From contig CAZUJN010000002.1 of NCBI GenBank assembly GCA_964620475.1, forward strand, positions 33,185 to 75,773: 42,589 nucleotides of DNA, read 5' to 3'. The DNA comes from an uncultured Candidatus Saccharibacteria bacterium. Lineage in GTDB: Bacteria; Patescibacteriota; Minisyncoccia; Phycocordibacterales; CAIZLB01. The position numbers and the translations under genes were made by a program. Under the pieces are notes generated by a model. It was not told the DNA's origin. It ran no database searches and saw only the letters and a program-made list of their open reading frames with translations. Shown here in pieces: positions 5,315 through 40,578 of this stretch; the first letter of the stretch is position 1, and the number at the start of each line of letters is the position of its first letter.

Positions 5315-5343
5315 TTGACTATATCAGATTTTACTTGTATTAT
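5315..5343 (+). promoter_or_regulatory. Sigma70-type promoter of GC-rich unit 1
   Basis: TTGACT(5315-5320)-N17-TATTAT(5338-5343), ATG 9 nt downstream. Confidence 0.75.
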
Positions 5344-5352
5344 TGTTTGAGT

Positions 5353-5841
5353 ATGAAACTTCAATTCCTCAAGTTGCGTGGAGGTAAATTTGCAATTATT
5401 CCTCCTGACGAAATTCAACAAAATATCGTTCAGAGACGCAGATTTGGATTTTGGCCTCAAACCAAGGTCAAGCAGATTCAAATCAAGTACCACATCCTGG
5501 ATGGACATCTCATTGCGACATTTCACCGAATCGACAAATCAGTCACCTTTTTCAACAGACAGGCGGCTGAAAAATGGTTCGAGAAGAAGCTTGATGTATC
5601 GCCATTGGTCGGTAACAAGATCATCACCTCTGATGCCGAACTTCAAATGACATTCTCTTGCCCTCATTGCGGTACAATCAAGTCGCAAAAACGGCGCAGA
5701 TTCTTCCATGTGCCGGAAAAGGTTCTGGATCATAAGGCCGCCATTCCAGAAACGCAGATTCAAGGTGCGACTTGTAAATGCGGCAAGAATTGTCACCTGG
5801 ATGTTCATCAAATCGGGAACATTCATGTTCGAGTACGTTAA
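5353..5841 (+). CDS. Orphan basic protein with putative zinc ribbon (GC-rich unit 1)
   Basis: ORF lies between a promoter and a terminator. It has CPHC...CKC(xxx)CH and elevated GC with C/G-ending codons. Confidence 0.75.
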   Translation: MKLQFLKLRGGKFAIIPPDEIQQNIVQRRRFGFWPQTKVKQIQIKYHILDGHLIATFHRIDKSVTFFNRQAAEKWFEKKLDVSPLVGNKIITSDAELQMTFSCPHCGTIKSQKRRRFFHVPEKVLDHKAAIPETQIQGATCKCGKNCHLDVHQIGNIHVRVR

Positions 5842-5868
5842 CCCTCTCAACCACCCTCAACCCAAAAC

Positions 5869-5903
5869 GCGCGTATCCTTCACAGGACCGCGCATTTTTA
5901 TTT
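5869..5903 (+). terminator. Intrinsic terminator of unit 1 (probably bidirectional)
   Basis: GCGCG-ta-TCCT-tcac-AGGA-c-CGCGC then ATTTTTATTT. An A4 run precedes it, and the convergent GNAT gene stops at 5911. Confidence 0.75.
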
Positions 5904-17084: not shown

Positions 17085-17099
17085 AGTTCATGGTATTTT
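17071..17099 (+). promoter_or_regulatory. Promoter of unit 2
   Basis: TTTACA(17071-17076)-N17-TATTTT(17094-17099) with TGn. The -35 lies in the last codons of the GT4 gene. Confidence 0.55.
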
Positions 17100-17127
17100 T
17101 ATATTTGTCGAACCTAAAAAACACCCA

Positions 17128-17532
17128 ATGAAATTTAAGATCCAACTAATCCGTCTTGCTGTCGAAAACTGGAAGATGTTTTCCTTTCTTTCGATTACAA
17201 TGTCTATAATCTCAGCATCCAAAAAACTACCATGCAATAACTTTCCTATAATCTGCATGTTTGGAATTATGGTGACTATATTATCCAGCCGACTACTGAT
17301 TCACATGTCAGACTATGTCTACAACACAGCTGCAAGAAGACAGCTGAGCGATTCAGAGCATAATATAAATAGAACCAAGACTGTGGCAATATGCTCTTGT
17401 TTAGGGTCTGCATTCATCCTTTTCTTCTCGTCACTTTCAGCTGGTCACCCATTGACTAATCTTGGTCAAGGAACGAATATTCAAGGTCAGCCGGTATCAA
17501 CCTTCCGGTTAATTAACCGGATATTCGAATAA
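17128..17532 (+). CDS. Orphan membrane protein (unit 2, moderately GC-elevated)
   Basis: 134 aa with 2-3 hydrophobic segments, C/G-ending codons, followed by a terminator. Confidence 0.65.
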   Translation: MKFKIQLIRLAVENWKMFSFLSITMSIISASKKLPCNNFPIICMFGIMVTILSSRLLIHMSDYVYNTAARRQLSDSEHNINRTKTVAICSCLGSAFILFFSSLSAGHPLTNLGQGTNIQGQPVSTFRLINRIFE

Positions 17533-17533
17533 C

Positions 17534-17565
17534 AAAAACTCGGGTCCAATCCCCGAGTCTTTTTT
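17534..17565. terminator. Bidirectional intrinsic terminator (unit 2 / efp)
   Basis: A5-ACTCGGG-tccaatc-CCCGAGT-c-T6. The efp stop abuts it at 17564. Confidence 0.8.
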
Positions 17566-18139
17566 ATTTACTAACTCTTTCTACATACTCACCTGTTTCT
17601 GTATTTATTCTAACCACATCTCCCGGCTCTATAAACATCGGTGCAAGTATTGTTGCTCCAGTAGCAAGGGTGATAAGTTTGTTACCACCTTTAGCAGTAT
17701 CACCTCTAACAGCCGGCGGAGCTTCTGTAACCTCAAGTTCAACTTTTATTGGTAATCTAACACCTATAGGTGTCTCACCAAAATATTTTACATCTATAAG
17801 ATCATTTGCTAATAAATATTTTGTTGCATCACCCAACAATACTTCTGATAATTTAAATCTATTCCCTGCATTCTTTTCATCACAGAACCACCACTCACCT
17901 TTATTATTATATAAATATTTAACTTTTTTAGTTTCTATTTCAGCCTCTTCTGCTTTATCTGTAGCCTGAAAAGAAACTTCTATAGTACGTCCTGAAAGAA
18001 GATTTCTCATCTTGACTGCGTTAACAGGTTTACGCATCTGCTTTCTAAAAACATGTGAGTCCAAGATCTCATAAGGCTCACCATCATCATATATAATTAC
18101 TTTTCTAATAACGATTTCGTTGTATTCTAACATTGACAT
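17564..18139 (-). CDS. efp: Elongation factor P (non-canonical tip loop)
   Basis: KMRNLLSG, YLYN..GEWWF and the C-terminal EAPPAVRGDTA.GGNKLITLATGA.ILAPMFIEPGD.VRINTETGEYVER. Confidence 0.95.
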   Translation of the reverse strand: MSMLEYNEIVIRKVIIYDDGEPYEILDSHVFRKQMRKPVNAVKMRNLLSGRTIEVSFQATDKAEEAEIETKKVKYLYNNKGEWWFCDEKNAGNRFKLSEVLLGDATKYLLANDLIDVKYFGETPIGVRLPIKVELEVTEAPPAVRGDTAKGGNKLITLATGATILAPMFIEPGDVVRINTETGEYVERVSK

Positions 18140-19584: not shown

Positions 19585-22224
19585 TTATAACACCTTCTTC
19601 AAATATTGTCCAGTATAACTGTTTTTATTGTTAGCCACCTCCTCTGGAGTACCTTTAGCTATAAGATCTCCACCCTTATCCCCTCCTTCTGGACCAATAT
19701 CCAATATATAGTCAGCACACTTTATCAAATCCATATTATGCTCTATAACTATAACTGTATTACCAGCTTGAACAAGACGTTGAAGTATCTCTATTAACTT
19801 TCTAACATCATGATAATGTAAACCGACAGTAGGCTCATCTAATATGTATATAGTTTTTTGAACATGCGGTTTATATAACTCTGAAGCAATCTTTACTCTC
19901 TGGGCTTCACCACCTGAAAGGGTTGTTGCTGATTGACCAAGCTCAAGATAACCAAGACCTACTTCTTGTAATGTCTTAACCCTATCATATACACCAGGCA
20001 TATCTTCGAAAAATGTCACGGCATCATCAACTGTCATAGTTAAGATATCATGTATATTTTTATTTTTATATAATATCTCTAAAGTTTCTTTCATGAATCT
20101 TTTTCCGCCACAAACATCACAAGTAACATATACTGTTGGTAAAAAATGCATTTCAACCTCTATAGAACCATTACCCTGACAGTTCTCACAACGACCACCC
20201 TTAACATTGAAAGAAAATCTTCCTGGACCCCACGCTCTGGCTTTAGCCTCTATAGTCTCAGCAAATAAATCACGTATATGAGTGAAAGCGCCTGTATAGG
20301 TTGCAGGGTTTGATCTAGGTGTACGACCTATAGGTGATTGATCTATAAGTATAGTTCTTCCTACGTATTCTGTACCGCTAAAAGAAGTACAATTATAAAT
20401 CTGACTTGTTCTATGTTCTCTATCAAGTTTTCCTAAAAGATTTTTATATAAAATTTCATAAACAAAAGAAGATTTTCCAGATCCTGATACACCTGTAACA
20501 CAAACTAGTCTTCCTAGCGGTATTTCTACATTTAGGTTTTTTATATTATTAACCTTACCTCCAGCTATTTTTATAAAACCTTTATTTGTATCCCTTCTAT
20601 TTTTAGGAACCTCAACTTCATGAGCGCCACGAAGATAATCAAGAGTTAATGAACCGGTAAAAGATTCTGAGTCAGAATGTTTTTTGTTTATAGGTAAAGA
20701 TTTTATGGGATCACGTAAAAGTTTATCTAAATAACCTTGTACAACAACATTACCACCTTTTACACCCGCACCTGGACCTATATCAACAAGATAGTCAGCT
20801 GATAATATGGTATCTTCATCATGTTCTACAACTATAACAGTGTTACCCATCTCTTTAAGTTGTAACAATGTTTTTATCAATCTATCATTATCTCTTTGAT
20901 GTAAACCTATAGTTGGTTCATCTAAAACATACATAGCGCCAACAAGACCTGAACCTAGCTGTGAAGCTAGGCGTATACGTTGTGATTCGCCACCTGAAAG
21001 CGTATGTGCACGACGATTTAATTGTAGATAATCTAAACCAACTTCTTGCATGAATTCTAGACGAGATAATATCTCTTTTACTATCACCGCCGATATCTCT
21101 CTGTCTATATCAGACATTTCCATACCCAAAACATAATCTATAGCTTCATTTATAGTCATGTTGGTAAAATCTATAATATTTTTCTTACCTGACAGAAAAA
21201 CCTTTAACGCCTCAGGTCTAAGTCTAGCACCTTGGCAAACTTTACATATTCTGTTCACAAAAAAACTATCTGTTCCTAAACCATTACACTCCGGACAAGC
21301 ACCGTAAGGAGAGTTGAAAGAAAATAATCTAGGCTCTATTTCAGGAAATGAAAAACCATCATATGGACACATAAATTTTGAAGATATAAGATGCTCTTCT
21401 TTATCTGTATATATACGAAGTAAACCCTCAGCTTCACGAAGAGCTCTCTCTATTGCATCATTTAATCTTTCTTTAAATGATTGTGAAGGTTCATTTATCT
21501 CTGATATATAAAATTGATCAATCAATATATCAATATCGTGTTTTTTTGTTTTTGTTAATTCTATCTTTTCACGAAGTTTATGTGTCTTTCCATCTATTCT
21601 AACCTCTTCAAAGCCTTTACCTAGATAATCATATAACATCTGATAATATTCACCCTTACGACCTATAACAACAGGAGCATATATTTTGAATATCTCTGAA
21701 TCTACCTCCACACCCATTATTTCTTTTTTACCCTTTAAGTCTTTTTTATTTATAGACTTAACTATATTATGTATAGTATCAACTATCTCCTCTTTAGAAA
21801 GTCTCTTTATCTCTCTGTCACAAGTTAGACAATGAGGTTTACCAACACGTGCATACAAAACACGAAGATAATCATATATCTCTGTTATAGTTGCAACCGT
21901 TGAACGTGGATTATTTGATCTTGATTTTTGATCAATAGATATAGCTGGAGATAAGCCTGTTATCTCATCTACATCTGGTTTCTGCATTTGCCTTAGAAAT
22001 TGTCTAGCATATGATGACAAAGATTCAACATATCTTCTTTGCCCTTCAGCAAAGATAGTATCAAAAGCCAAAGATGATTTACCACTACCTGATAAACCAG
22101 AAATAACAGTCATTTGACCACGAGGAATAGACACATCTATATTTTTAAGATTATGTGTTCTGGCACCTTTTACATGTATCATGTCTAGGTCCATTTTTGA
22201 GTCTTTTTTATCGGACTTTTTCAT
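19585..22224 (-). CDS. uvrA: Excinuclease ABC subunit A
   Basis: GARTHNLKNID, two Walker A motifs (GLSGSGKSS, GVSGSGKSS), LSGGESQR/LSGGEAQR and zinc-finger CxxC pairs. Confidence 0.98.
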   Translation of the reverse strand: MKKSDKKDSKMDLDMIHVKGARTHNLKNIDVSIPRGQMTVISGLSGSGKSSLAFDTIFAEGQRRYVESLSSYARQFLRQMQKPDVDEITGLSPAISIDQKSRSNNPRSTVATITEIYDYLRVLYARVGKPHCLTCDREIKRLSKEEIVDTIHNIVKSINKKDLKGKKEIMGVEVDSEIFKIYAPVVIGRKGEYYQMLYDYLGKGFEEVRIDGKTHKLREKIELTKTKKHDIDILIDQFYISEINEPSQSFKERLNDAIERALREAEGLLRIYTDKEEHLISSKFMCPYDGFSFPEIEPRLFSFNSPYGACPECNGLGTDSFFVNRICKVCQGARLRPEALKVFLSGKKNIIDFTNMTINEAIDYVLGMEMSDIDREISAVIVKEILSRLEFMQEVGLDYLQLNRRAHTLSGGESQRIRLASQLGSGLVGAMYVLDEPTIGLHQRDNDRLIKTLLQLKEMGNTVIVVEHDEDTILSADYLVDIGPGAGVKGGNVVVQGYLDKLLRDPIKSLPINKKHSDSESFTGSLTLDYLRGAHEVEVPKNRRDTNKGFIKIAGGKVNNIKNLNVEIPLGRLVCVTGVSGSGKSSFVYEILYKNLLGKLDREHRTSQIYNCTSFSGTEYVGRTILIDQSPIGRTPRSNPATYTGAFTHIRDLFAETIEAKARAWGPGRFSFNVKGGRCENCQGNGSIEVEMHFLPTVYVTCDVCGGKRFMKETLEILYKNKNIHDILTMTVDDAVTFFEDMPGVYDRVKTLQEVGLGYLELGQSATTLSGGEAQRVKIASELYKPHVQKTIYILDEPTVGLHYHDVRKLIEILQRLVQAGNTVIVIEHNMDLIKCADYILDIGPEGGDKGGDLIAKGTPEEVANNKNSYTGQYLKKVL

Positions 22225-22261: not shown

Positions 22262-22328
22262 ATAAAAAAAAGACCGTCTCCTTGGGTAAGGATCCGGTCT
22301 GGGTTGGCGACGGTGGTTAAGTCCGTCG
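22262..22328 (-). terminator. Double hairpin/terminator of unit 3
   Basis: Minus strand: CGACGG-N9-CCGTCG, then AGACCG-ga-TCCTT-accc-AAGGA-ga-CGGTCT and T8. Confidence 0.8.
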
Positions 22329-23057
22329 TTAGTGATGATGTTCGCGGGCAGGCATACGCCTCGTCTTGGTCTTACCGCCAGAAGACAGGTCACCCTGTTT
22401 TTGACGACGGAAAAAAGTCGTGATGCGTCCGCTGATTTCACCAGAGACTTCATCAACAGACCTCATGCCGTCAATCTCGTAGATCTTGACTCCGAGTTGT
22501 TTGATGACGGAAAGAGTACGTCGACGCTTGGTCGCCCAAGCGTGCCAACGAGCCTTAACCGTCTCAGGATCGAAATCATCAAGGCGCCCTTCGATTTTCG
22601 CACGGTATTCGGCTCTGTAGAGTGCTTCTTCAAGCGTGATACCGATATCGAATCCCATAGCGCGACCTGGTTGTGCGATGAAACTGTTCAGCTCCCTGCC
22701 TTGATCATAATCCCGCGGGATACCATCAAGACAAACCGTCGAACCTGGAAAAATCTCAGTCTCGCTGACAAATTCACGGACAAGACCCATGACCACAGGG
22801 TGCGGTAGATATCCGCCGCGAGCCATGGTCGGACCATGAGTCTGGGCGAAGTGTTCATCATCCTCGCACTTGAGACGTGCTTGAGTTCCCGTGCTCAAAT
22901 GAACGTTAGCATGCCGTTTGGCTTGAGTACCCTTTCCAGAGAGAGGGTGGCCCAAAAACAAGACAACATTGATATCCATTCCCGGACGATTAAGAATATG
23001 CGATCTAGACATGATACAGTGGGTGTTGGTTTGAATGTGTGCATGCACCAGCTCCAT
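22329..23057 (-). CDS. Divergent adenylate/NMP kinase-family protein (GC-rich unit 3)
   Basis: LFLGHPLSGKGTQA P-loop, HLSTG, LDGIPR..DQ, R...GRLDD...V..R (short LID) and EIDG.RSVDEV. About 50-57% GC in sampled lines. Confidence 0.82.
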   Translation of the reverse strand: MELVHAHIQTNTHCIMSRSHILNRPGMDINVVLFLGHPLSGKGTQAKRHANVHLSTGTQARLKCEDDEHFAQTHGPTMARGGYLPHPVVMGLVREFVSETEIFPGSTVCLDGIPRDYDQGRELNSFIAQPGRAMGFDIGITLEEALYRAEYRAKIEGRLDDFDPETVKARWHAWATKRRRTLSVIKQLGVKIYEIDGMRSVDEVSGEISGRITTFFRRQKQGDLSSGGKTKTRRMPAREHHH

Positions 23058-23075
23058 TGCTGACACATAAAAAAT

Positions 23076-23104
23076 ATCATACATAAAAAAACACCTTACG
23101 TCAA
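23076..23104 (-). promoter_or_regulatory. Promoter of unit 3
   Basis: TTGACG(23104-23099)-N17-TATGAT(23081-23076), just after the uvrB stop. Confidence 0.8.
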
Positions 23105-23111
23105 ATATAAT

Positions 23112-25154
23112 CTATAAGTCCTCAAGTATATTATTTATTGCCTTTATCTCATCTCTGAGTATTGCAGCAGTTTCAAAATCAAGCTCTTTCACAGCATTAT
23201 TCATCTCATTTTCTTTCCTTTTTAATATAATCTTAACATCTTTTTTCTTTAAAGATTTTATATTGTCAATATCAATGTCAAGAGATAACATTTTCTTCAC
23301 AGTCTTTTCATGATTTGATTCTATGGATGCTGTAATATCATGAATATTCTTTTTAATTGATTGAGGTGTGATATTATTTTTCTTATTATATTCTTCTTGT
23401 ATCTTTCTTCTTCTATTAGTCTCGTCTATGGCATAGCGTAAAGAATCAGTCATATTATCAGCATATAATATAACTCTACCATTTAGATTACGAGCTGCAC
23501 GGCCTATTGTTTGTATTAAAGCTGTACGTGATCTTAGAAAGCCTTCTTTATCAGCATCTAATATACCTATCAAAGATACTTCGGGTAGATCCAAACCTTC
23601 ACGAAGTAAGTTAACACCGACCAACACATCAAAATCACCTTTTCTTAATTCTGTTAATATTTGTATTCTCTCAAGTGTCTCGACATCACTATGCAAATAT
23701 CTTGTTTTTATTTTCTTTTCTTTCAAAAATTCTGATAAATCTTCAGCCATCTTTTTTGTTAAAGTCGTAGCTAAAGCCCTTTCACCTCTTTTTACAACCT
23801 GTTCAACTTCATTTATAAAATCATATATTTGCCCAACATATTCTTTATCAGCCACTACCGGTTTTACTACAAGTTGTGGATCCAATAATCCTGTTGGTCT
23901 AATAATCTGTTCTATTATATGTTCTTTCTTACAATGCTCATATTCATATTTTCCTGGAGTAGCTGAAACATATATAGATTGACCGACTTTTGATTCAAAT
24001 TCTTCAAAACGAAGAGGTCTATTATCTGCAGCTGAAGGTAATCTAAAACCAAAATCAATAAGATTTTTCTTTCTTGATTGATCGCCTGCATACATACCAC
24101 CTATTTGAGGTATTGTAACATGTGATTCATCTATCACTGTTAAAAAATCATCAGGAAAATAAGAAATTAATGTATCAGGTGCCTCACCCTCTGCTTTACC
24201 AGAAAAATGTCTAGAGTAATTTTCTATACCATTACAATAACCGACTTCTCTGATTAAGGACAAATCATAAGTCGTTCTTCTTTTTAATCTCTGATACTCT
24301 ATCTGCTTATCTTCTTTTTCTAATTGTTTTAATCTTTGATCTAATTCTTTTTTTATAGATTCTATAGCTTTAGTTTTAGCTTCGTCAGAAGTCATAAAAT
24401 GTTTTGCTGGAAATATAAAAACTGATTCAACATCATCCTCTAATATGACTCTGGTTATATGATCTATTTTTTCTATAGTCTCCAGAGTATTCATATTAAA
24501 AATCAATCTATACACAACTCTTTCATGTATTGGCATAATCTCTATATTATTACCAGTCATACGAAATTGTCCCTGACCAAGATCCGCTAAAGTCCTAGAA
24601 AATTGCATTTGTATTAATTTTTTAGCAATCTCATTTCTATCATATTTCTCACCCTTTTTTATATGAAAATTTGTATCTAAATATTCTTTAGGTGAACCTA
24701 AACCATATATACAAGATACTGAAGCTACTATTATTACATCATTTCTTGTTAATAAGGCCTGAGTTGAGGCATGACGAAGTCTATCTATCTCTTCATTAAT
24801 CTGTGCTTCTTTCTCTATATATGTATCACTATGAGAAATATATGCCTCAGGTTGATAATAATCATAATATGATACAAAATAGTGCACAGCATTTTCAGGA
24901 AAAAATTCCTTAAACTCCTGAGCAAGCTGAGCAGCTAAAGTTTTATTATGAGCTATAACTAGAGTTGGTTTTTGAACCTGATTTATAACATTGGCAATAG
25001 TAAAAGTCTTACCTGTACCCGTAGCACCAAGTAATGTTTGATGATGTTCCCCTGATTTTAAACCCTTAACCAAAGATTTTATTGCCTCAGGTTGATCACC
25101 ACGAGGTTCATAATCAGAAATCAATTTAAATTTTCTATTATTTTCCTTGCTCAT
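23112..25154 (-). CDS. uvrB: Excinuclease ABC subunit B
   Basis: GDQPEAI, LLGATGTGKT, AHNKTLAAQL, YFVSYYDYYQPEAY, VIDESH and NLLREGLDLPEV. Start trimmed to MSKENN at 25154. Confidence 0.98.
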   Translation of the reverse strand: MSKENNRKFKLISDYEPRGDQPEAIKSLVKGLKSGEHHQTLLGATGTGKTFTIANVINQVQKPTLVIAHNKTLAAQLAQEFKEFFPENAVHYFVSYYDYYQPEAYISHSDTYIEKEAQINEEIDRLRHASTQALLTRNDVIIVASVSCIYGLGSPKEYLDTNFHIKKGEKYDRNEIAKKLIQMQFSRTLADLGQGQFRMTGNNIEIMPIHERVVYRLIFNMNTLETIEKIDHITRVILEDDVESVFIFPAKHFMTSDEAKTKAIESIKKELDQRLKQLEKEDKQIEYQRLKRRTTYDLSLIREVGYCNGIENYSRHFSGKAEGEAPDTLISYFPDDFLTVIDESHVTIPQIGGMYAGDQSRKKNLIDFGFRLPSAADNRPLRFEEFESKVGQSIYVSATPGKYEYEHCKKEHIIEQIIRPTGLLDPQLVVKPVVADKEYVGQIYDFINEVEQVVKRGERALATTLTKKMAEDLSEFLKEKKIKTRYLHSDVETLERIQILTELRKGDFDVLVGVNLLREGLDLPEVSLIGILDADKEGFLRSRTALIQTIGRAARNLNGRVILYADNMTDSLRYAIDETNRRRKIQEEYNKKNNITPQSIKKNIHDITASIESNHEKTVKKMLSLDIDIDNIKSLKKKDVKIILKRKENEMNNAVKELDFETAAILRDEIKAINNILEDL

Positions 25155-25776
25155 GTTTTTTGTGTTTTCTAAATTTAAAATAATATAATGCCACAAAAAC
25201 CAAAATAATCAAAGTTAATAATATACTTATATCAGAGACCCATTTTTCTATCTCTTTAAAATATGTACCAAAATAATAACCTACTATTATATACAATGAA
25301 GACCACACAAAAGCAGATAATATATCATAAAACATAAACTTAGAAATATTCATTTTGATGCTTCCGGCTATTAATGGAACTATAGGTCTTATTGGACCAA
25401 CAAAACGACCTATGAATATACTTTTAAAACCATGATTTGAGAAGAACTTGTGACCTTCTTCTATATGAGAATGCTGTAGTAATTTTTTGTGTTTTAATAA
25501 AAAATTTGATCCATATTTACCTAACATATAAGCAAGTAAATCACCAACAACTGAACCTATGGTAGCAGCAAGTATCAAGAGAGATATATGAACATCTAAC
25601 CTTGATGCAGAAAATCCAAAGAATAAGAAAAATAGTGTTCCAGGTGTTAAGGTCCCTATAAATGGTGTTGATTCCAACACAGCAGATAAGAAAACCAATA
25701 TCGGAAAATAAGCTACCAAAAAATTAGCATGAGTATTTAAATATAATATAAACAAATCTATATATGGAGATAACAT
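25138..25776 (-). CDS. dedA: DedA family membrane protein
   Basis: LES...G.LTPG, GSVVGDLLAYMLG, IFIGRFVGPIR..VPLIAG and F...DILSAFVW. Confidence 0.92.
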   Translation of the reverse strand: MLSPYIDLFILYLNTHANFLVAYFPILVFLSAVLESTPFIGTLTPGTLFFLFFGFSASRLDVHISLLILAATIGSVVGDLLAYMLGKYGSNFLLKHKKLLQHSHIEEGHKFFSNHGFKSIFIGRFVGPIRPIVPLIAGSIKMNISKFMFYDILSAFVWSSLYIIVGYYFGTYFKEIEKWVSDISILLTLIILVFVALYYFKFRKHKKHEQGK

Positions 25777-25782
25777 AATTTT

Positions 25783-26457
25783 CTATTTTTTTATAATTAT
25801 AACAAATTCGCCCTTAACTTTTGAAGGATTATTAACATAGAAATCTAATATATTTTTAACATTGTCAGCTTTTATATCTTCATACATCTTAGTCAATTCC
25901 CTGCCCACGACAATAAACTGTTCTGGGTTTATGTTAATTATCTCTTCTAATAATTTTATAAATCTATGCACAGACTCATATAAGACAATATTTGTATCGG
26001 TTTTTAATAACTCAGTCAATATCTTTTGTCTACCTTTTTTATGTGGCAAAAAACCATAAAACATAAAAGGTGTCTCTCTTATTCCAGAGACGGATATCAA
26101 TGCTGTAATAGCTGATACGCCTGGTATAGGTATAATCTCTATATCATTATCTCGGCATGCTTTAACTAAAACCGCTCCTGGATCAGATATGCCAGGACTT
26201 CCAGCGTCGGACACATAGGCAATATCTTTACCCTCATTCAATATATCTATACAATATTTTATATTTTTATCTGTAGCAAATTCATTTATAGATATAAGCT
26301 GTTTTTTAGATATCTTTAACAAAGACAATAATTTAGATGCAACCCTAGTATCTTCTGCGGCTATTATATCAACTTGATTCAATGTCGATACGGCACGAAT
26401 AGTTATATCGTCTTTATTTCCTATAGGTGTTGCTACTATATATAATTTTCCTTTCAT
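25783..26457 (-). CDS. rsmI: 16S rRNA (cytidine1402-2'-O)-methyltransferase
   Basis: LYIVATPIGN.DDIT.RA, AAEDTR, SDAGSPGISDPG, YESVHR and RELTK.YE. Confidence 0.97.
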   Translation of the reverse strand: MKGKLYIVATPIGNKDDITIRAVSTLNQVDIIAAEDTRVASKLLSLLKISKKQLISINEFATDKNIKYCIDILNEGKDIAYVSDAGSPGISDPGAVLVKACRDNDIEIIPIPGVSAITALISVSGIRETPFMFYGFLPHKKGRQKILTELLKTDTNIVLYESVHRFIKLLEEIININPEQFIVVGRELTKMYEDIKADNVKNILDFYVNNPSKVKGEFVIIIKK

Positions 26458-26461
26458 ATAA

Positions 26462-27265
26462 TTAATATTCTACGTCTATACTAGTAAATCCATCTCTGGT
26501 AACAATGACATGATCCAATAAAGCTATACCTAAAACCTTACCAGCTTCTATAATCTGTTTAGTTATAAATTTATCTGATTCACTTGGTGTTGATACACCA
26601 GAAGGATGATTATGTACTAATATAAAAGCGGCAGCACCGTATTCTATGGCTGGTTTAAAGACCTCACGAGGGTGAACTATACTGCTGTTTATAGTACCTA
26701 TAGATAAAACCTCATCATGTATAACTTTATTATGAGTGTCCAGATAAAGACCTCTCAAATGTTCTTTTGATAGAGAGTGCATATCTTTAGTATGATCATA
26801 TACATCATCGGCAGTTCTGATTGTTTTTAAGCCATTTATGTTTTTATCAAACAGTCTCTTACCAAGCTCTCCGCAAGCTATAATCTGACAAGTCTTAATA
26901 AGAGGTATACCAAGATCTTTAGAAATCTTCTCTATATCGGAACCTGTATCTGAGAATATACTTTTACCATATTCTTTAAGAACACGAGAGGCCATAGACA
27001 ATACATCTTCCTTCTTGGTTCCAGTGATTAAGACAACTGACAGTAATTCAGATAAATTCAAAGATTTAGGACCAAAAGCCAATAGTTTTTCTCTAGGTTG
27101 ATCATGGGTTGGTAAGTCCTTCACCTTCAAAACATAATGTTTAAGGTTTTTATCAGAATAAGATATACCTTTATCTATAAATATCAAATCACCGTTTTCT
27201 ACTTTAGCATACGGTGATTTGATGAGTTTATTATCTTGTTTAGTTTTTATTTTTTTTGTTGACAC
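26462..27265 (-). CDS. radC: RadC/JAB (MPN) domain protein
   Basis: PREKLL..G...L..SELL, SIGTINSSIVHPREVF and HNHPSG...PS.SD...LLDHVIV. A GTG start at 27265 is proposed, with TATAAT 6 nt upstream. Confidence 0.92.
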   Translation of the reverse strand: MSTKKIKTKQDNKLIKSPYAKVENGDLIFIDKGISYSDKNLKHYVLKVKDLPTHDQPREKLLAFGPKSLNLSELLSVVLITGTKKEDVLSMASRVLKEYGKSIFSDTGSDIEKISKDLGIPLIKTCQIIACGELGKRLFDKNINGLKTIRTADDVYDHTKDMHSLSKEHLRGLYLDTHNKVIHDEVLSIGTINSSIVHPREVFKPAIEYGAAAFILVHNHPSGVSTPSESDKFITKQIIEAGKVLGIALLDHVIVTRDGFTSIDVEY

Positions 27266-27313
27266 AAGTGTATTATAACACACCTGTATTTTCATAAAAA
27301 TTGACTGTATTGA

Positions 27314-28735
27314 TTATATAGTCTCTACCACTAAGACATTTGATTCAGCGGTCTTTTTAAAAGGTGTACCTGAAACAACAACAACTTTATCTCCTTTTTT
27401 AACCAATTTATCTTTCAATAGAGAAGCTTTTGCATTTTTCCACGCATCTTCAAAATTTGTATATTTTGGAGTAACTCTTGCATATGTACCGTAGAATAGG
27501 TTTGATTGATTGGCTGTTGTTTGATCTGGGGTCATAAGTATAAGAGGTTTTTGGCCTTTATAACGAGCAAGCATTCTTACTGCGTAACCAAATTCACTTA
27601 TAGCAACTATAAACTTTGAATCTATGTTGTCAGCTGTAAATACCGCTGATTCACATATTGATTGACCTGTACTATGTTCATTTACACCTATATTGAACAT
27701 AACATTTTTCTGTCTAAGTTCATTCTCAACTTTCATGGCAACTTTAGTCATCATCTCTACGGCCTCTACCGCATAATCACCTAATGTTGTTTCTTCTGAA
27801 AGCATTATTGCATCTGTACCGTCATATATAGCGTTTGCTATATCTGAGATTTCAGCACGTGTAGGAACTGGATTTTTAATCATACTCTCTAACATCTGTG
27901 TAGCTGTTATAACTGGTTTACCTGCATGATTACATTTTTCTATAATCATTTTTTGATAACCGGGAACTGCTTCATAACCAACTTCAACCGCCAAGTCACC
28001 ACGACCGATCATAATAGCATCTGATGCTTCTATGATTTCATCTATATTTTCTATAGCTTCTGGGGTCTCAATCTTAGACATTATCATAGCTCTTGATTTT
28101 GCTTTATTTAAAATATCTCTAAGCTCTTGTACTTCTGATGCTTTTTTAACAAAAGAGAAAGCAACTATATCTACTTTATTTTTTATACCGAAAGCTATAT
28201 CTTTTTTATCTTTGTCTGTTAAAGCTCTTATTTTTAAATTTGCACCTGGTAAGTTTACTGATCTTCTTCCTTTTGTTTCTCCACCAACAAGGATTTTACA
28301 TTTTATCTCTTTACCTTTTATCTCCACTACTTCAAATTTCTTTTTACCATCATCAACCAAAACTATATTACCCACAACCAACTCTTCATGTAATGTTGGA
28401 TAATTCATGGCAACTCTATCCTTTGTACCCTTTTCAAGTTTATCACAAGTAAGTGTGATATATTCACCAGCCTTCAACATAACTGTAGGAGTTTCGAAGT
28501 CACCTATTCTAAACTTAGGACCTGAAAGGTCTTGCAATAACGCAGCTTTCAAACCTGTTTTAGCTGATGCTTTTTTATATGAATCTATTTTTCCTTGATG
28601 TTCAGCGAAATCACCATGAGAGAAGTTCATACGAATAACATTCATACCTGCCTTTAACAATCTTTCCATCTGTTGTGGAGACTCTGTTTTAGGACCTATT
28701 GTACATACGATTTTTGTTTTTTTACCAAGATGCAT
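27314..28735 (-). CDS. pyk: Pyruvate kinase
   Basis: KTKIVCTIGP, RMNFSHG, DLSGPK.R, KIETPEA, MIGRGDLAVE, TATQMLESM and DAIMLSEET. Confidence 0.97.
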   Translation of the reverse strand: MHLGKKTKIVCTIGPKTESPQQMERLLKAGMNVIRMNFSHGDFAEHQGKIDSYKKASAKTGLKAALLQDLSGPKFRIGDFETPTVMLKAGEYITLTCDKLEKGTKDRVAMNYPTLHEELVVGNIVLVDDGKKKFEVVEIKGKEIKCKILVGGETKGRRSVNLPGANLKIRALTDKDKKDIAFGIKNKVDIVAFSFVKKASEVQELRDILNKAKSRAMIMSKIETPEAIENIDEIIEASDAIMIGRGDLAVEVGYEAVPGYQKMIIEKCNHAGKPVITATQMLESMIKNPVPTRAEISDIANAIYDGTDAIMLSEETTLGDYAVEAVEMMTKVAMKVENELRQKNVMFNIGVNEHSTGQSICESAVFTADNIDSKFIVAISEFGYAVRMLARYKGQKPLILMTPDQTTANQSNLFYGTYARVTPKYTNFEDAWKNAKASLLKDKLVKKGDKVVVVSGTPFKKTAESNVLVVETI

Positions 28736-28808
28736 ATTTTTATTTTATTTTTATTTTCTATTAATTTGTAATATGTCTTGTAATATAACACATTTTTAGG
28801 AAAAATGT

Positions 28809-30581
28809 TTATCTATCTGCAGGTATTTCATAATAAGAGATAAGAAAATCAGACAAGTCAAGAAAAGGATTAGCTAAAGACTCTGAAGCATATCCAGAAT
28901 TTTTAGGATCAACAGTATAAATAAATACTATAAATTGTGGTTTATAGGCCGGAAAGAAACCTATGAAAGTATGTATACTTTTACCATCTATATAACCTCC
29001 TGTCTCTGATGCTACCTGAGCTGTACCTGTCTTAGCCGCTATAGTATAACGTGGGTTTTTTCTTTTACCATTTAACAATGAATGATCTACGTTATATACC
29101 AACATACTTCTAATCTCATCTATAGTTGCAGGTTTTAATACGGGTGTCTGTTTTGTTAAATCTTCAGGCTTGATTTCTTTAAATCCACCAATTTCGTATT
29201 TTATTTTATTCACTATATGTGGAGAGACCACATATCCGCCATTTGCAACGACAGACAAAGCTCTTATTGTTCCTATAGGACTCATGGCTATACCTTGACC
29301 AAAAGAAACTGTAGCATGTTCCACATCACCTTTCTCAAGATTTGACGTCAAAGGAGCTGATTCATTTGGTAAATCTATATTTGTTTTTTTATTCATACCA
29401 AAACTATAAAAATATTTTGTCATGACATCATTACCGACAAGTCTTGATATATACACAAGACCAGTGTTAAGTGACTGTGATAATGCCTCTTGCATAGGTA
29501 TATACCCTCTACCTTTTTTATCAAAGTTATGTATTGTCCTATCTTTTACCTTTATAAATCCTTCATCATTATATTTTGAATCAGCATGCACTTTATCGGT
29601 ATCTATACCCATAGCCATAGTTAAAGATTTTATAATAGATCCCATTTCATAAGAAGATTCAACTATATCATTTTTATAATATTCTATAGGAAAAGCACTT
29701 TCGTCATTATGTGAAAATGTTGGAACTTTAGCCATGGCAATAATCTCCCCTGTATATGGGTTCATAACTATCGCACCAGTTAAATCTGAATTTTGTTTAT
29801 TGTGTATCTCTCTAATCTTATTTTCTAGTTCTTTTTGAACGACTGGTTCTATGGTGGTATATATATCACCCTCCATCTGTGATTTATCCGTTATAACCTT
29901 TTTGGCACCTGCAAATAAATCTACAAAAAAATTACTATAGGCCTTATCTGCTCTATTCAAAATATTTTCATAATACTTTTCTAGACCGTATCGACCAGCC
30001 AATTCATCACCTTTAAAACCTATAGTACCTATAACATTAGATGCTAATTCATTACCTGGATAATATCTTTTTTTCTCTTTACCGAGACCCAAAAAATCTA
30101 ATTTTAAATCTCTTATTTGTTTTTGTTCATCCTCACTTAAACCTTTAACAAGCTCTAAATAAACATCATTCTTCTTCGCTTGTATCTTGATGAATTTTTC
30201 CTCTAAAATTCGTTTTTTATCCTCATTTAATTTTAATGTATTTAAAATCTTTGATTTAGTATCTGCAATCAATTGTTCCTCACTTTGCTTATTAATATTT
30301 TTATCTGATTTAACAAAAGTATAAAATGATTTTGGATTTATATACAAAGTATAATCATCTTTCATCGTTGCGGCCGCTACATGTGAGCCGTCTTTTTTGG
30401 TAAAGAAAATGCTACCCCTATCTACAATATTAGAATTTTTCTTTATGTATTGTCTATCACCTAAAGCAACATAATTATCATGTCTAACTACCTGAACTAT
30501 ATAAAGCTTAAATATCAAAACTATAGCCACCAAAATAAAGGCTATCGCCAATAATCTGATTCTATTAATAAAAGTATTCAT
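28809..30581 (-). CDS. ftsI: Class B penicillin-binding protein (FtsI/PBP2-like)
   Basis: N-terminal TM, RGSIF, RYYP, GLEKYY, YEMGSIIK (SxxK), SLN and KTGTAQ. It lies downstream of mraZ-rsmH-ftsL. Confidence 0.9.
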   Translation of the reverse strand: MNTFINRIRLLAIAFILVAIVLIFKLYIVQVVRHDNYVALGDRQYIKKNSNIVDRGSIFFTKKDGSHVAAATMKDDYTLYINPKSFYTFVKSDKNINKQSEEQLIADTKSKILNTLKLNEDKKRILEEKFIKIQAKKNDVYLELVKGLSEDEQKQIRDLKLDFLGLGKEKKRYYPGNELASNVIGTIGFKGDELAGRYGLEKYYENILNRADKAYSNFFVDLFAGAKKVITDKSQMEGDIYTTIEPVVQKELENKIREIHNKQNSDLTGAIVMNPYTGEIIAMAKVPTFSHNDESAFPIEYYKNDIVESSYEMGSIIKSLTMAMGIDTDKVHADSKYNDEGFIKVKDRTIHNFDKKGRGYIPMQEALSQSLNTGLVYISRLVGNDVMTKYFYSFGMNKKTNIDLPNESAPLTSNLEKGDVEHATVSFGQGIAMSPIGTIRALSVVANGGYVVSPHIVNKIKYEIGGFKEIKPEDLTKQTPVLKPATIDEIRSMLVYNVDHSLLNGKRKNPRYTIAAKTGTAQVASETGGYIDGKSIHTFIGFFPAYKPQFIVFIYTVDPKNSGYASESLANPFLDLSDFLISYYEIPADR

Positions 30582-30877
30582 TATCTTCTAGCTAAACTAA
30601 TATCATTTATATTAACATAAGCTATTATATCTTCTGTGTTTTTCTTATAGCCCATAGAAATAGCCTTGTCTAAATTTATTGCAGAAATCTCTCTTATATA
30701 ATCATATTCTTTTTGATTTATATCAGCAGATAGACTCTCAACTTGCTTATTATTTAACTCTGAAGCAGAGGCCAGAACAACAGTTTTATATATACATATT
30801 ATGTATGACAATGTTAACGCTATTGTCATTACTATAACTGATAATGTATATGTATTTTTTGTTATTCTGTTTTTCAT
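30581..30877 (-). CDS. ftsL: FtsL-like bitopic coiled-coil protein
   Basis: Sits between rsmH and the PBP. It has a single TM followed by a coiled-coil-like region and the I...A..MG motif. Confidence 0.55.
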   Translation of the reverse strand: MKNRITKNTYTLSVIVMTIALTLSYIICIYKTVVLASASELNNKQVESLSADINQKEYDYIREISAINLDKAISMGYKKNTEDIIAYVNINDISLARR

Positions 30878-30890
30878 TTTTATTAATTTA

Positions 30891-31820
30891 TTAATTTTTA
30901 TTAAATATTCTTAATTTTGCGCTTCTAGATTTTGGATTATTCTTTATTTCTTCCTCTGTTGGTATAATAATTTTTTTATTTACTCTCTTACCTTTATTTT
31001 CTTCTTCTAATTTCTTAAAATATTGTTTAACAATAATATCTTCCAAACTGTGATAACTTATAACCGCGATATATCCATCATTTCTTAAAATATCATAGGC
31101 ACCACTTAAACCTTTGTCTAAAGATTGTAATTCATCATTAACAGCAATCCTTATGGCCTGAAAAGTTTTTGTAGCTGGGTGAATCTTAAATTTCTTACCA
31201 TTAAAAACTTGATTTTGTATAATATCCGCCAATTGACCCGAAGTTTCTATTTTTTGTTTTTCCCTGACTTCAGCTATTTTATTGGCTATACGCCAGGCAG
31301 ATTTTTCATCAGCATAATTTCTAAGTATTAGAGTTATATTTTCGACAGACCAAGAATTTACAATATCATAAGCAGTTAATTCATTTTCTTTTGCATCTAA
31401 GGTTGAGAATCTCATGTCTAACCTTTCATCGTATTTAAATGAGAACCCTCTACCAGCGCCATTCAACTGATATGTACTTAATCCTAAGTCAAATAAAACA
31501 CTATTGAATTTTATACCTTTGATTAGATCTAATATATTAGCGAAGTTTCCTTGTATGATATTTATATGAATATTTTTATTATCTTCATATTTTTTAAGAA
31601 ATTCTTTACCTCTTTTTATTGCATCTTGATCTAAATCAAATGCATAAATAAATATGTTTTTATATTTTTTTGAAGATAATAGATTTTCTATAAAATATTC
31701 TACATGTCCACCATCACCAAAATTACAATCTAAATGATAATAATCTTCAAACCCACCCTTATTATTAATGACAATGTGCTCATAAATCTCTTTGGCTAAT
31801 ACAGGTATATGTCTGATCAT
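30891..31820 (-). CDS. rsmH: 16S rRNA (cytosine1402-N4)-methyltransferase
   Basis: HIPVL, DC.FGDGGH, DLGLSTYQL...GRGFSF, IHPATKTFQAIRIAVN, SYHSLED and NPKSRSAKLR. Confidence 0.97.
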   Translation of the reverse strand: MIRHIPVLAKEIYEHIVINNKGGFEDYYHLDCNFGDGGHVEYFIENLLSSKKYKNIFIYAFDLDQDAIKRGKEFLKKYEDNKNIHINIIQGNFANILDLIKGIKFNSVLFDLGLSTYQLNGAGRGFSFKYDERLDMRFSTLDAKENELTAYDIVNSWSVENITLILRNYADEKSAWRIANKIAEVREKQKIETSGQLADIIQNQVFNGKKFKIHPATKTFQAIRIAVNDELQSLDKGLSGAYDILRNDGYIAVISYHSLEDIIVKQYFKKLEEENKGKRVNKKIIIPTEEEIKNNPKSRSAKLRIFNKN

Positions 31821-31824
31821 TTTT

Positions 31825-32283
31825 TTATATTGCTCCTATTGAACTTAATTTAGATGCTAGACTATCTGCTTGTTTTAAAATCTTTTCTTTATATTCTTTC
31901 CATCTCTTATCTTCCCAAATCTCTATACGAGTATGAACTCCGGCAAAAACTAATTTACTATTTGATTTTTTATCATCTGTTGTTTTTACACCAGCATATT
32001 CTCTCAAGAAATCAGGAATCAAGATTCTTCCAGCGGTATCTATTTCCAATTCAACAGCACCTGCCAACATAATTCTGTTAAAACCACGAGAGTCTGAATT
32101 ACCTATTGATAAATTTCCTAATTGCTCAGCGATTTTACTCCATTGTGACAATGTAAACATAAACAAACAGTTGTCGAGACCGTGTGTGACAATAACTTTC
32201 TTACCAAGTTCTTTTCTAAACTTGGAAGGAAGTGAAAGTCGTTTTTTGTCATCCAATGTATGTGTAAATTCGCCAATAAACAT
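31825..32283 (-). CDS. mraZ: Division/cell-wall cluster transcriptional repressor MraZ
   Basis: MFIGEFTHTLDDKKRLSLPSKFR, LD.AGRILIP.FLREYAG and IEIW. Start trimmed to 32283. Confidence 0.97.
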   Translation of the reverse strand: MFIGEFTHTLDDKKRLSLPSKFRKELGKKVIVTHGLDNCLFMFTLSQWSKIAEQLGNLSIGNSDSRGFNRIMLAGAVELEIDTAGRILIPDFLREYAGVKTTDDKKSNSKLVFAGVHTRIEIWEDKRWKEYKEKILKQADSLASKLSSIGAI

Positions 32284-32307
32284 AATTTTTAATAATTTTC
32301 TTTTATA

Positions 32308-32357
32308 ACACTTTGTCCCACTACATACCATTATATACCACTTACCTACATTTGCAA
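32308..32357 (-). promoter_or_regulatory. mraZ promoter with 10-bp-periodic MraZ-box-like repeats
   Basis: Minus strand ATGT/GTGG/ATGG/GTGG/GTGT at exact 10-nt spacing (32351, 32341, 32331, 32321, 32311), overlapping TTGCAA-N16-TATAAT. Confidence 0.8.
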
Positions 32358-32378
32358 ACAAAAAACCACACTTTGTTG

Positions 32379-32387
32379 TGTGGATAA
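32379..32387 (-). promoter_or_regulatory. Perfect DnaA box
   Basis: TTATCCACA on the minus strand, upstream of the mraZ promoter. Confidence 0.65.
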
Positions 32388-32389
32388 TT

Positions 32390-32425
32390 AAAAAGGGTCC
32401 GACGCTGTGTTATGGCGTCGGACCC
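32390..32425 (-). terminator. Terminator of unit 4
   Basis: Perfect 11-bp stem GGGTCCGACGC-cataacaca-GCGTCGGACCC plus T5. Confidence 0.85.
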
Positions 32426-32454
32426 AGTGAAAACGCGGGTGAGGCGTAAGGGTT

Positions 32455-32889
32455 TCAGGATTCTTCGTCTTCCTCAATCCGCTTTGCGGCAATGATCATG
32501 ACATGATGACCCGTAATTGCCATATTCGGACTGAATCTGACTTTTTTCCAAGTCTTCCGTTCGCGGTCCCACAAGAGACAGTTCCTTCGATCGTCGCGAT
32601 GCCTGAGCGGAATCGCGAGGTCAAATTTCATCTCAACCGGATCCGGCAGATTGATGACAGAGTCTTCGATATGAATCGAATCAATCACACCCGTGGGTGC
32701 AAAAGTGTAATTCTCATCGATGACGTCTGACATCATGGCACAGATGTCAACCGGTTTCGTCCTGTCAATCGGTAAGACCACGCCAAGAAGAGTGGCTTTA
32801 TCGAATTCACCGAGCGGTACAACCACCCAGTCCGTCGTCGTTGTTGCTTCAGCAATCATAGTGTCCCAATGTATTAGTGTTTTGTTCAC
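32455..32889 (-). CDS. Orphan protein (GC-rich unit 4)
   Basis: About 55% GC in a sampled line, between a promoter and a terminator. Start is GTG 32889 or ATG 32859. Confidence 0.72.
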   Translation of the reverse strand: MNKTLIHWDTMIAEATTTTDWVVVPLGEFDKATLLGVVLPIDRTKPVDICAMMSDVIDENYTFAPTGVIDSIHIEDSVINLPDPVEMKFDLAIPLRHRDDRRNCLLWDRERKTWKKVRFSPNMAITGHHVMIIAAKRIEEDEES

Positions 32890-32947
32890 ACCAAGAGCTC
32901 TCGACCGGTCCCAAGATCGGAGGGGTGTTCAGGGTGCAACGTATTTA

Positions 32948-32976
32948 TTTATACCACATTAAACCTCATGACTCAA
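32948..32976 (-). promoter_or_regulatory. Promoter of unit 4
   Basis: TTGAGT(32976-32971)-N17-TATAAA(32953-32948) with TGn. The -35 lies inside the last murG codons. Confidence 0.7.
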
Positions 32977-34098
32977 GGCTATATTCAATACTTCATGAGC
33001 TATTGTTTTTGCTGCATTGGGAGTAGAAAAATCCCTAGCATTCTTAGACATTTTCTCATGTAAATCTGGATTATTTAAAATCTTCTCTATCTCATTTATC
33101 AAAATCTGTGGTGATAAATTTGCCTCTTCAACCACGGCACATGCCCCGCTTCTAGAATAGTTAAAAGCATTTTTTCTTTGATGATCACCATTTGAATCAG
33201 TTATGGGTATAAGTATAGATGGTACTCCCCAAGCTGCTATCTCAAATATACCTGATCCAGATCTTGAAATAATAATATCTGATATACCACCCAACATTCT
33301 CATAGACATCATATTTAGATAATCCATAGGTTTATATCTATCAGGATTTGTAGCACCTTCTAAAGATATATCTGCCATACCTTTAACTATTTCAAAATTT
33401 GCTTTCCCTGTTTGATGAATTATTTGATATTTTTTAACTAATTCTGGTAAAACACTAACTATAATATCATTTATCTTCTTTGCGCCTTGAGATCCGCCCA
33501 ACACTGATATGGTTTTTAGATTTGGATCAAGTTTTAAATATTCATAAGCACCAATCTTAATAGGTGTTAATAATTCTGATCTAACTGGCTGACCTGTATA
33601 TGCAACTTTTTTAATATCAAAATGCTCTGCTGCTTCTTTAAAAGATACTGCTATTTTTTGAGCAAATTTACCCGCCCATACATTTACCCTGCCAGGAACA
33701 GAATCTGATTCATGTACTATAACTGGTATACCAAAAAATCTAGCGGCAAATAAAGTTGGAAAACTAGTATAACCGCCTTTTGCAAAAACAACATCTGGGA
33801 AAATGGTAAATATCTTTAAAATACCAATAAACACACCGAAGCCCATTTTAAATATATCTATAAAATTATTCAAAACAGCTATACCCTTAGGGTTTACACG
33901 TCTCTTGCCTGCTGGTATACGAACAAATTTAATATCTCTATCAAAGAGTTCTTTAGCATTATATGGACTAGGGCCAGTATAATATATCTTTGGATCCAAT
34001 ATTTTTTGTTCTGCACACTCTGCCCTTATAGCATCCACCACAGCTAATAATGGATAAAAGTGACCTCCTGTTCCACCTCCGGTTATAACTATTTTCAT
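32959..34098 (-). CDS. murG: UDP-GlcNAc:lipid I GlcNAc transferase
   Basis: TGGGTGGHFYP, KGGYTSFP, HESD.VPG..N, LGGSQGA and HQ..NA. Confidence 0.97.
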   Translation of the reverse strand: MKIVITGGGTGGHFYPLLAVVDAIRAECAEQKILDPKIYYTGPSPYNAKELFDRDIKFVRIPAGKRRVNPKGIAVLNNFIDIFKMGFGVFIGILKIFTIFPDVVFAKGGYTSFPTLFAARFFGIPVIVHESDSVPGRVNVWAGKFAQKIAVSFKEAAEHFDIKKVAYTGQPVRSELLTPIKIGAYEYLKLDPNLKTISVLGGSQGAKKINDIIVSVLPELVKKYQIIHQTGKANFEIVKGMADISLEGATNPDRYKPMDYLNMMSMRMLGGISDIIISRSGSGIFEIAAWGVPSILIPITDSNGDHQRKNAFNYSRSGACAVVEEANLSPQILINEIEKILNNPDLHEKMSKNARDFSTPNAAKTIAHEVLNIALSHEV

Positions 34099-40574: not shown

Positions 40575-40578
40575 ATTT

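Follow-up and report, generated by a model that had tools for sequence, protein, structure and literature searches.

GC-rich single-gene units in fixed slots of an AT-rich Patescibacteria genome

GC-rich units of the window and their edges

The window analyzed here is a stretch of 42,589 nucleotides (nt) of DNA from an uncultured Candidatus Saccharibacteria bacterium (genome G000, positions C2:33185-75773), a member of the Patescibacteria (Candidate Phyla Radiation [CPR]) with a 94%-complete genome of 640,733 bp on 25 contigs and a G+C (GC) content of 31.9%. Four stretches of the window, each of ∼0.5 to 0.8 kb, are sharply GC-rich, and a weaker one lies at 17128-17568 (Table 1). The genes in question form short units with GC of 0.47 to 0.52, compared to 0.28 to 0.33 in their neighbors, and three of the slots that they occupy (uvrB-uvrA, holding unit 3; murG-mraZ, holding unit 4; and the slot of unit A) were compared across the relatives G001 to G016 of the same genus, of which G009 is the closest. 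These slots and their promoters are conserved, the history of their content is decoupled from that of their flanks, and we consider it probable that the GC-rich islands are resident, hypervariable, monocistronic accessory-gene units whose coding cores are exchanged by homologous recombination.

To describe the edges of the islands, GC edges were placed as maximum-likelihood change points, and start sites and termination points were predicted from sequence. Change points of unit 3 at 23066 and 22272 divide the sequence into GC of 0.29, 0.52 and 0.32 (by segment: promoter, 0.23; 5′ untranslated region [UTR], 0.47; coding sequence [CDS], 0.52; 3′UTR, 0.61; following 60 nt, 0.22), and those of unit 4 at 32941 and 32395 into 0.32, 0.51 and 0.33, with GC of 0.22 to 0.30 in the 60 nt flanking each unit on either side. 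An earlier note on this DNA had proposed that the GC-rich segment coincides with a transcript, and for these two units it does match the predicted one: GC rises 6 to 10 nt past the −10 box (10 nt in unit 3 and 7 nt in unit 4) and falls at the T-run of the terminator, the 3′ edge in both units being the final base in the stem of a GC-rich hairpin, directly before that run. The positions that the note gave for the −35 boxes were likewise recovered, within the last murG codons for unit 4 (−35 at 32976-32971, −10 at 32953-32948), 7 to 8 nt past the uvrB stop for unit 3 (−35 at 23104-23099, −10 at 23081-23076) and within the last codons of the upstream 384-amino-acid (aa) open reading frame (ORF), GT4 in the note, for unit 2, where the local high-GC stretch is 330 nt long and reaches ∼0.42. 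By their presence alone, promoter-like hexamer pairs carry no weight because they are equally common in shuffled sequence (86 in the window; 94 ± 11 expected). The promoters of the units do carry weight because they are conserved in 8 to 10 genus genomes, whatever allele follows, which agrees with the note's view of them as resident: TTGAC and TAT(G/T)AT of unit 3 are invariant across 10 genomes, the extended −10 TGGTAT(A) of unit 4 is kept in 10, and TTGACT of unit A is invariant in 8. In the unit 4 slot, 7 of 10 genomes have a separate TTGnnn −35 ∼27 nt past the murG stop, and G000, G009 and G011 are without this spacer. A “TATAAA” at the GC edge of unit A was rejected as a promoter, being the tail of a terminator read backwards (the unit lies on the plus strand).

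The same pattern extends across the genome. Gene GC in G000 is bimodal, with a second mode at 0.42 to 0.46 and no continuum, and the GC-rich class comprises ∼41 ORFs of 70 to 255 aa with GC of at least 0.43 and third-position GC (GC3) of 0.4 to 0.6, compared to a median GC3 of 0.21. The shift of the class affects every codon position (GC1, GC2 and GC3 of 0.51, 0.40 and 0.49), sense-strand cytosine is raised most (from 0.08 to 0.28 at third positions), and sense-strand adenine is depleted (0.28 versus 0.38), as is thymine. A genome-wide change-point check of the kind suggested in the earlier note covered 27 clean islands. In 23 of them the 3′ change point fell −2 to +3 nt from a T-run (7.8% at random positions), and in 10 the 5′ change point was preceded, at a distance of 2 to 20 nt, by the end of a promoter-like site (≥9/12; 5.4% at random); in the remaining islands the GC edge lies close to the start codon, after a CA-rich leader. 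On these island-edge statistics the observation is real and strongest at the 3′ end. Terminators follow 35 to 60 nt past the stop, after a C-rich, G-poor spacer, and between two adjacent units a 154-nt spacer drops to a GC of 0.21. No paralogs were found when the ∼41-gene class was taken together with borderline ORFs (49 in all, at a GC of ≥0.42), and the 3′ hairpins of the units showed no shared recombination motif, just the common C-rich spacer. The class includes secreted and cell-wall-active proteins (3D, YkuD-like and with PEP-CTERM-like tails); such tails (IPEP..., a hydrophobic stretch and RRRR) end two GC-rich genes, at C4:3747-4283 and C1:156098-156724. A full-text literature search returned no published description of this pattern of GC-rich units in CPR genomes. 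Two possible sources of the pattern were rejected: RNA genes, the window having no tRNA or Rfam matches, and assembly breaks at the units, GC-rich genes showing no enrichment near contig ends (12.5% versus 13.2%).

The unit 3 protein matches Pfam ADK above the cutoff and, as judged from its sequence, carries the signature of the adenylate kinase family (P-loop nucleoside monophosphate kinase fold), with GxxxxGK, YLPD, DG..R..Q and RxDD kept in four alleles; its start codon was set after that of the 216-aa homolog P0001. The unit 4 protein, whose start codon at 32859 was set after 134-aa members of its cluster, has homologs in 10 genomes with the motifs ...YxFVPxG... and D.AIPLR..RxNY..W. Its AlphaFold2 (AF2) model is confident (pLDDT [predicted local distance difference test], 78; pTM [predicted template modeling score], 0.75), and a Foldseek search of that model against PDB returned no fold match (best E, 1.5). 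Unit A encodes a 162-aa Cys-pair (zinc-ribbon-like) protein (5353-5841, plus strand), again with a C-rich spacer before the terminator.

Table 1. Positions of the GC-rich units, their parts and the adjoining core genes in the window
Feature	Position	Strand	Basis or detail
Unit A (outside the range of the earlier note)	5315..5899	+	Promoter TTGACT, 17 nt, TATTAT 5315-5343; terminator 5869-5899
Unit 2 of the earlier note	17071..17568	+	TTTACA, 17 nt, TATTTT; 134-aa ORF 17128-17532; terminator 17538-17568
uvrA, core gene downstream of unit 3	19585..22224	-	Pfam UvrA_inter, ABC_tran
Unit 3 3′UTR	22263..22328	-	Small hairpin 22308-22328; stem AGACCG...CGGTCT 22271-22300; T-run 22263-22271
Unit 3 CDS, 216-aa adenylate-kinase-like P-loop kinase, GC 0.52	22329..22979	-	Pfam ADK, E 8e-13
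Unit 3 5′UTR, 87 nt, GC 0.47	22980..23066	-	Change point and segment GC
Unit 3 promoter (predicted, sigma70-type) TTGACG, 17 nt, TATGAT	23076..23104	-	Sequence and hexamer scan match
uvrB, core gene upstream of unit 3	23112..25196	-	Pfam UvrB, UvrB_inter, Helicase_C, UVR
mraZ, core gene downstream of unit 4	31825..32283	-	Pfam MraZ; start codon as in the 152-aa MraZ of L166
Conserved AT-rich frame 3′ of unit 4	32330..32383	-	Hairpin CCACAC..GTGTGG and T-run, then mraZ promoter TTGCAA, 16 nt, TATAAT
Unit 4 terminator	32390..32425	-	11-bp GC stem 32395-32425, T-run 32390-32394; change point 32395
Unit 4 CDS, 134-aa orphan alpha/beta protein	32455..32859	-	No Pfam match
Unit 4 5′UTR, 82 nt, GC 0.52	32860..32941	-	Change point and segment GC
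Unit 4 promoter (predicted) TTGAGT, 17 nt, extended −10 TGgTATAAA	32948..32976	-	Sequence
murG, core gene upstream of unit 4	32959..34098	-	Pfam Glyco_transf_28, Glyco_tran_28_C; final codons contain the −35
GC-rich unit cut by contig end	42005..42589	-	Partial ORF 42072-42589, terminator stem 42010-42038, T-run 42005-42009

Slots, frames and exchanged alleles across the genus

Neither an empty uvrB-uvrA site, nor an empty murG-mraZ or unit A site, was found in the 8 to 17 genus genomes read. The alignment to empty sites by which the earlier note hoped to locate insertion breakpoints thus had nothing to align to: the slots always hold a distant homolog, and the breakpoints that can be placed are those of swaps, located at +1 (the predicted start site), at the start codon or within the 3′-terminal part of the gene. 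Downstream of uvrB, an adenylate-kinase-like gene is present in G003, G009, G010, G011 and G015 (with a weak homolog in G002), the murG-mraZ gap measures 0.6 to 0.8 kb in 10 of 10 genomes and codes for one protein family with shared motifs, and the unit A slot is filled by one paired-cysteine family in 8 of 8. Within the genus these slot proteins are 20 to 45% identical, compared to 73 to 99% for core genes.

Divergence of the coding cores was decoupled from that of the flanks in both directions. Between G000 and G009, the flanks of unit 3 are 97.2 and 99.2% identical, whereas leader and CDS are 45.8% identical with 94 gap columns (28% identity of the protein). Identity ends exactly after TATGAT-ATTTTTTATG, at 23067/23066 (∼+1, as predicted), an edge that is both the GC edge and the 5′ breakpoint of allele replacement, and returns 17 nt before the stop codon, so the two genomes share the 3′UTR and terminator of unit 3 despite their different CDS; a related terminator is kept across the genus. 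Conversely, G000 and the metagenome contig L053 have leader and CDS 96.8% identical between flanks of only 87 and 78%, and the terminator of L053 is different. At the unit C4:3747-4283, genome L170 (GCA_964478465.1) has flanks 95 to 100% identical to those of G000 and the same promoter, 5′UTR, C-terminal sorting tail, 3′UTR and terminator, around a core that is only 35 to 60% identical. At unit A, G009 and G014 have one allele type and the window another, the difference spanning 5357-5853 with breakpoints at the start codon and 12 nt past the stop. Replacement therefore has no single breakpoint: it was placed at +1, at the start codon, at 17 nt before the stop and at the start of the C-terminal sorting tail. 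UTRs and terminators often persist through a replacement of the coding core and therefore belong to the resident frame.

Alleles group differently from slot to slot: at murG-mraZ the G014 allele groups with that of G003, and at unit A the G009 allele groups with that of G014. On these sequence comparisons, alleles do move between lineages, with a history of content separate from that of the flanks. Among 28 further GC-rich genes, ∼9 have matches of ≥85% in G009, 3 have matches of ≥80% in G014 (2 of them ≥85%) and none has one in G001, and the unit cut by the contig end is present as the same allele in G009 at 92%. The GC-rich units look like the main variable fraction of this 640-kb symbiont genome. 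Where an allele is shared, divergence is ordinary: 11 of 547 sites of unit 4 differ between G000 and G009 (2.0%), compared to 2.8% over the surrounding 5 kb, which argues against local hypermutation.

Several sequence features in and around the units may be of separate interest. The C-rich, G-poor spacer between stop and hairpin, e.g., CCCACCCCAACTCAAAACC, is found at 5842-5868 of the window, at C5:19378-19400 and on C10, and this 3′UTR spacer may act as a rut-like element or bind a protein. The −35 box of the kinase unit (TTGACC) lies, in several genomes, in the loop of the terminator hairpin that precedes the unit (L003:2300-2345 in G010), one short sequence thus doubling as terminator and promoter (alignment A4). 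A kinase-unit leader, TAGTCTTGGATTTGGGTGAGTGCTCG, is kept in G003, G004, G010, G012, G013 and G016 (alignment A4, columns 837-870) and could be a regulatory RNA element; the leaders of G000 and G009 differ from it. In six genus genomes an additional gene of ∼170 aa, for which Pfam gave no match, separates uvrB from the kinase promoter (L002:849-1367 in G003; alignment A4, columns 150-790); G000, G009, G010 and G011 lack this gene. Downstream of unit 4, the hairpin before the mraZ promoter (32366-32383, in the same place in 10 genomes in alignment A3) contains TTATCCACA, a match to the DnaA-box consensus, and GTGG-type repeats with ∼10-nt spacing surround the mraZ −10 box; both are possibly binding sites of MraZ or DnaA. 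Just upstream of the promoter of the PEP-CTERM-like unit, L170 (∼2330-2420, compared to C4:∼3643 of G000) has a GC-rich insertion of ∼80 nt with a hairpin and T-run in a genome otherwise 95 to 100% identical; the insertion could represent a small element or the remaining tail of a unit since lost. A block of ∼9.3 kb in G000 (C5:∼3362-12712) that is missing from G009 (C11:5435-5647) is probably a mobile island.

Origin of the units and of their GC content

In the explanation that we consider probable, each unit would be ordered as a conserved, near-consensus sigma70-type promoter, a GC- or CA-rich leader, a fast-evolving ORF of 70 to 255 aa, a C-rich, G-poor spacer and a GC-rich intrinsic terminator. 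Distant homologs of the same family would replace the coding core by homologous recombination, with promoter and leader as one arm, the 3′ end of the gene with 3′UTR and terminator as another, and the adjoining core genes as further arms. The incoming DNA may be taken up from co-occurring relatives, and the driver may be selection for diversity in accessory proteins, those that are secreted or cell-wall-active among them. Everything transcribed in the units, conserved UTRs included, would be held at ∼45 to 55% GC, and since promoter and T-run must be AT-rich and the transcribed part is GC-rich, the GC edges would coincide with +1 and the T-run.

It is the host lineage, rather than the allele, that the GC level tracks: among the three slots, GC rises and falls together from genome to genome (r of 0.85 to 0.97). 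Slots of G000, G009 and G014 rank highest (0.44 to 0.52), followed by G010, and those of G001, G003 and G004 are near background. The same allele type at murG-mraZ has GC3 of 0.55 in G014 and 0.26 in G003; two different kinase alleles, in G000 and G009, are both at ∼0.5 GC; and two unit A allele types near saturation at 4-fold sites (identity, 0.44 to 0.50) both have GC3 of ∼0.45 to 0.5. Polarized changes inside units (28 AT>GC versus 19 GC>AT) are weak evidence because the outgroups are distant and the alleles mosaic. The GC level of the units is a long-lived property of the lineage and not the fading mark of recent import.

Repeated import is the most serious competitor, though we regard it as unlikely. 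Under this explanation, moron-like genes from a pool or donor of ∼50% GC would have been recombined into the slots and would be decaying toward the AT-rich state, with an age of import that differs by lineage. The codon-position profile of the class would suit a genome of ∼48% GC, alleles cross lineages, the PEP-CTERM-like tails occur without a detected exosortase, and the near-background GC of the same slots in G003, G004 and G001 is what decayed copies would show. However, no donor or close homolog came to light outside the clade: three cargo queries against 5.8 billion proteins returned the same clade only, or matches of ≤36% identity, and a scan of GTDB genomes returned just generic adenylate kinases. 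All known carriers share the frame and are AT-rich genomes, GC-richness extends to the conserved resident UTRs and terminators, GC tracks the lineage in three unlinked slots, and gene GC has a second mode in place of a continuum; moreover, GC3 does not lag behind GC2, and the polarized changes are balanced. The suggestion in the earlier note that the segment from transcription start site (TSS) to terminator is foreign is not supported, given the same observations together with the lack of empty sites, the resident ends of the units and the variable breakpoints. GC-biased gene conversion, in which the slots would be recombination hot spots with biased heteroduplex repair whose strength is set by the recombination rate and population size of the lineage, would account for the recombining segments being the GC-rich ones, for the shift at all codon positions and in the UTRs and for the lineage-specific level. 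It also predicts a gradient into the core-gene arms, whereas GC steps sharply within ∼10 nt, and the parts of the frame that are identical between alleles are GC-rich as well, which makes it improbable.

In the capture proposed by the earlier note, foreign transcripts (TSS to U-tract) were acquired through an RNA/cDNA or single-stranded DNA (ssDNA) intermediate behind resident promoters, consistent with the agreement of the GC-rich stretch with the predicted transcript, with the end of G000/G009 identity at ∼+1 and with the presence of a reverse transcriptase gene in G000. That enzyme is the only one in the genome and is part of a classical diversity-generating retroelement that has a target of its own (C4:39037-42846, i.e., L066:4038-7846; 342-aa reverse transcriptase). 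The 130-nt template repeat (L066:5466-5595) and the variable repeat (5953-6082, at the 3′ end of a 632-aa ORF) differ at 27 positions, 26 of them template adenines, and the pair (C4:∼40465-41082) was found only there; an action of the retroelement on the units was rejected, unit alleles differing by indels and all kinds of substitution. Furthermore, a cDNA starting at +1 would be without a 5′ homology arm, the 3′ breakpoints fall within the gene, the UTRs and terminators are part of the resident frame, and the cargo is homologous across the genus, with none of the empty sites and with variable breakpoints in place of those expected of retrogene-like capture; we find this route very improbable, and the data lend the note's proposal no support. 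The note's alternative, that selection kept only inserts landing behind a promoter, fits the data trivially and is not needed to explain them. Hardly credible, finally, is a targeted hypermutation of the transcribed region that makes units both hypervariable and GC-rich. Strong divergence of units between species and the depletion of sense-strand adenine speak for it, whereas short-term divergence does not exceed background (as in unit 4, above), the G000-type kinase allele differs by 3% where its flanks differ by 13%, alleles are separated by many indels, thymine is depleted besides adenine, and it is cytosine that rises most.

Several points weigh against the resident-unit explanation as well. 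The correlation of GC among the three slots is drawn from 6 to 9 genomes that are interrelated, and the +1 and 3′ ends of the units are predictions. Exosortase (PF09721) was not detected in the 94%-complete genome, and PEP-CTERM-like tails without it hint at foreign ancestry of some units. Nor does the explanation supply an established cause of GC-richness: high expression or codon adaptation fails because highly expressed core genes (EF-G, L2, enolase, GAPDH and RecA) have GC3 of 0.16 to 0.21, and the excess of RNA structure is modest and near equal on the two strands (mean z, −1.55 sense and −1.18 antisense, compared to −0.59 for AT-rich genes; predicted transcripts of units 3 and 4, −1.66 and −3.65), for which reason mRNA structure was rejected as the cause. 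It is possible that a GC-rich reservoir (phage, plasmid or unsampled lineage) exists, which GC-based binning would drop. Nonetheless, between repeated import from GC-rich donors and a constraint or bias that acts on the transcribed unit, we hold the latter to be likelier.

A broader and more tentative idea, which we hold to be possible yet somewhat doubtful, is that CPR bacteria maintain a dedicated compositional class, made up of a few dozen accessory genes that are hypervariable, monocistronic and strongly promoted. A transcript-tied force, lineage-set in its strength, would actively keep the transcript over its full length, along with the conserved UTRs, ∼15 to 20 GC points (∼30 in GC3) above the AT-rich genome; this force could be selection acting on the unit as RNA or as DNA, or else a transcription-linked repair bias. 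If so, the rule that odd composition means recent transfer would fail for these genes, and a GC excess tied to transcription or RNA would point to a so far unrecognized constraint on expression in AT-rich minimal genomes. Compositional oddity, the standard marker of recent acquisition, here marks old fixed loci with swapped cores but a lasting frame and GC level, and island-finding tools would therefore misread ∼6% of the genes of G000. As secreted and cell-wall-active proteins are included, the units are candidates for an interface with host or phage.

Comparison with known systems

A moron is a single ORF between its own promoter and terminator, inserted between genes that are adjacent in related genomes (as quoted in PMC4378225). 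The units resemble the morons of lambdoid and Mu-like phages in being single ORFs with their own promoter and terminator (as predicted elements) between two backbone genes, and in a base composition unlike that of their neighbors (GC3 of 0.4 to 0.6 versus 0.2). Unlike morons, they sit in a bacterial chromosome beside uvrB, uvrA, murG and mraZ, and not in a phage; the slot holds one family genus-wide, and since no related genome is without a unit, the units are not “more DNA”. Their odd composition is, in addition, long-lived and tied to lineage.

Integron cassettes are likewise small modules of one gene each, with a hairpin at the end, and are swapped between genomes. In contrast, the units are dispersed and not arrayed, each has its own promoter, and their hairpins are ordinary, mutually unrelated terminators with T-runs, not attC sites; no integrase gene was seen beside the slots read, although no dedicated integrase search was run. 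The targets of diversity-generating retroelements resemble the units in that both are accessory genes of a CPR genome with hypervariable sequence. A template repeat is missing from the units, whose variation is not adenine-specific and includes indels and whose proteins are only 28 to 45% identical.

Besides that to morons, a near likeness in content and position is to the replacement-type flexible genomic islands and islets of marine bacteria, in which divergent content lies at a fixed position between conserved flanks and is exchanged by homologous recombination. The units share the fixed position with divergent content, the conserved flanks that could serve as recombination arms and the alleles that cross lineage boundaries. 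They differ in being single small genes and not multigene clusters, with ∼40 of them dispersed over 640 kb, and in having breakpoints that lie inside one transcription unit. They also differ in a uniform GC excess of ∼15 to 20 points that takes in the conserved UTRs.

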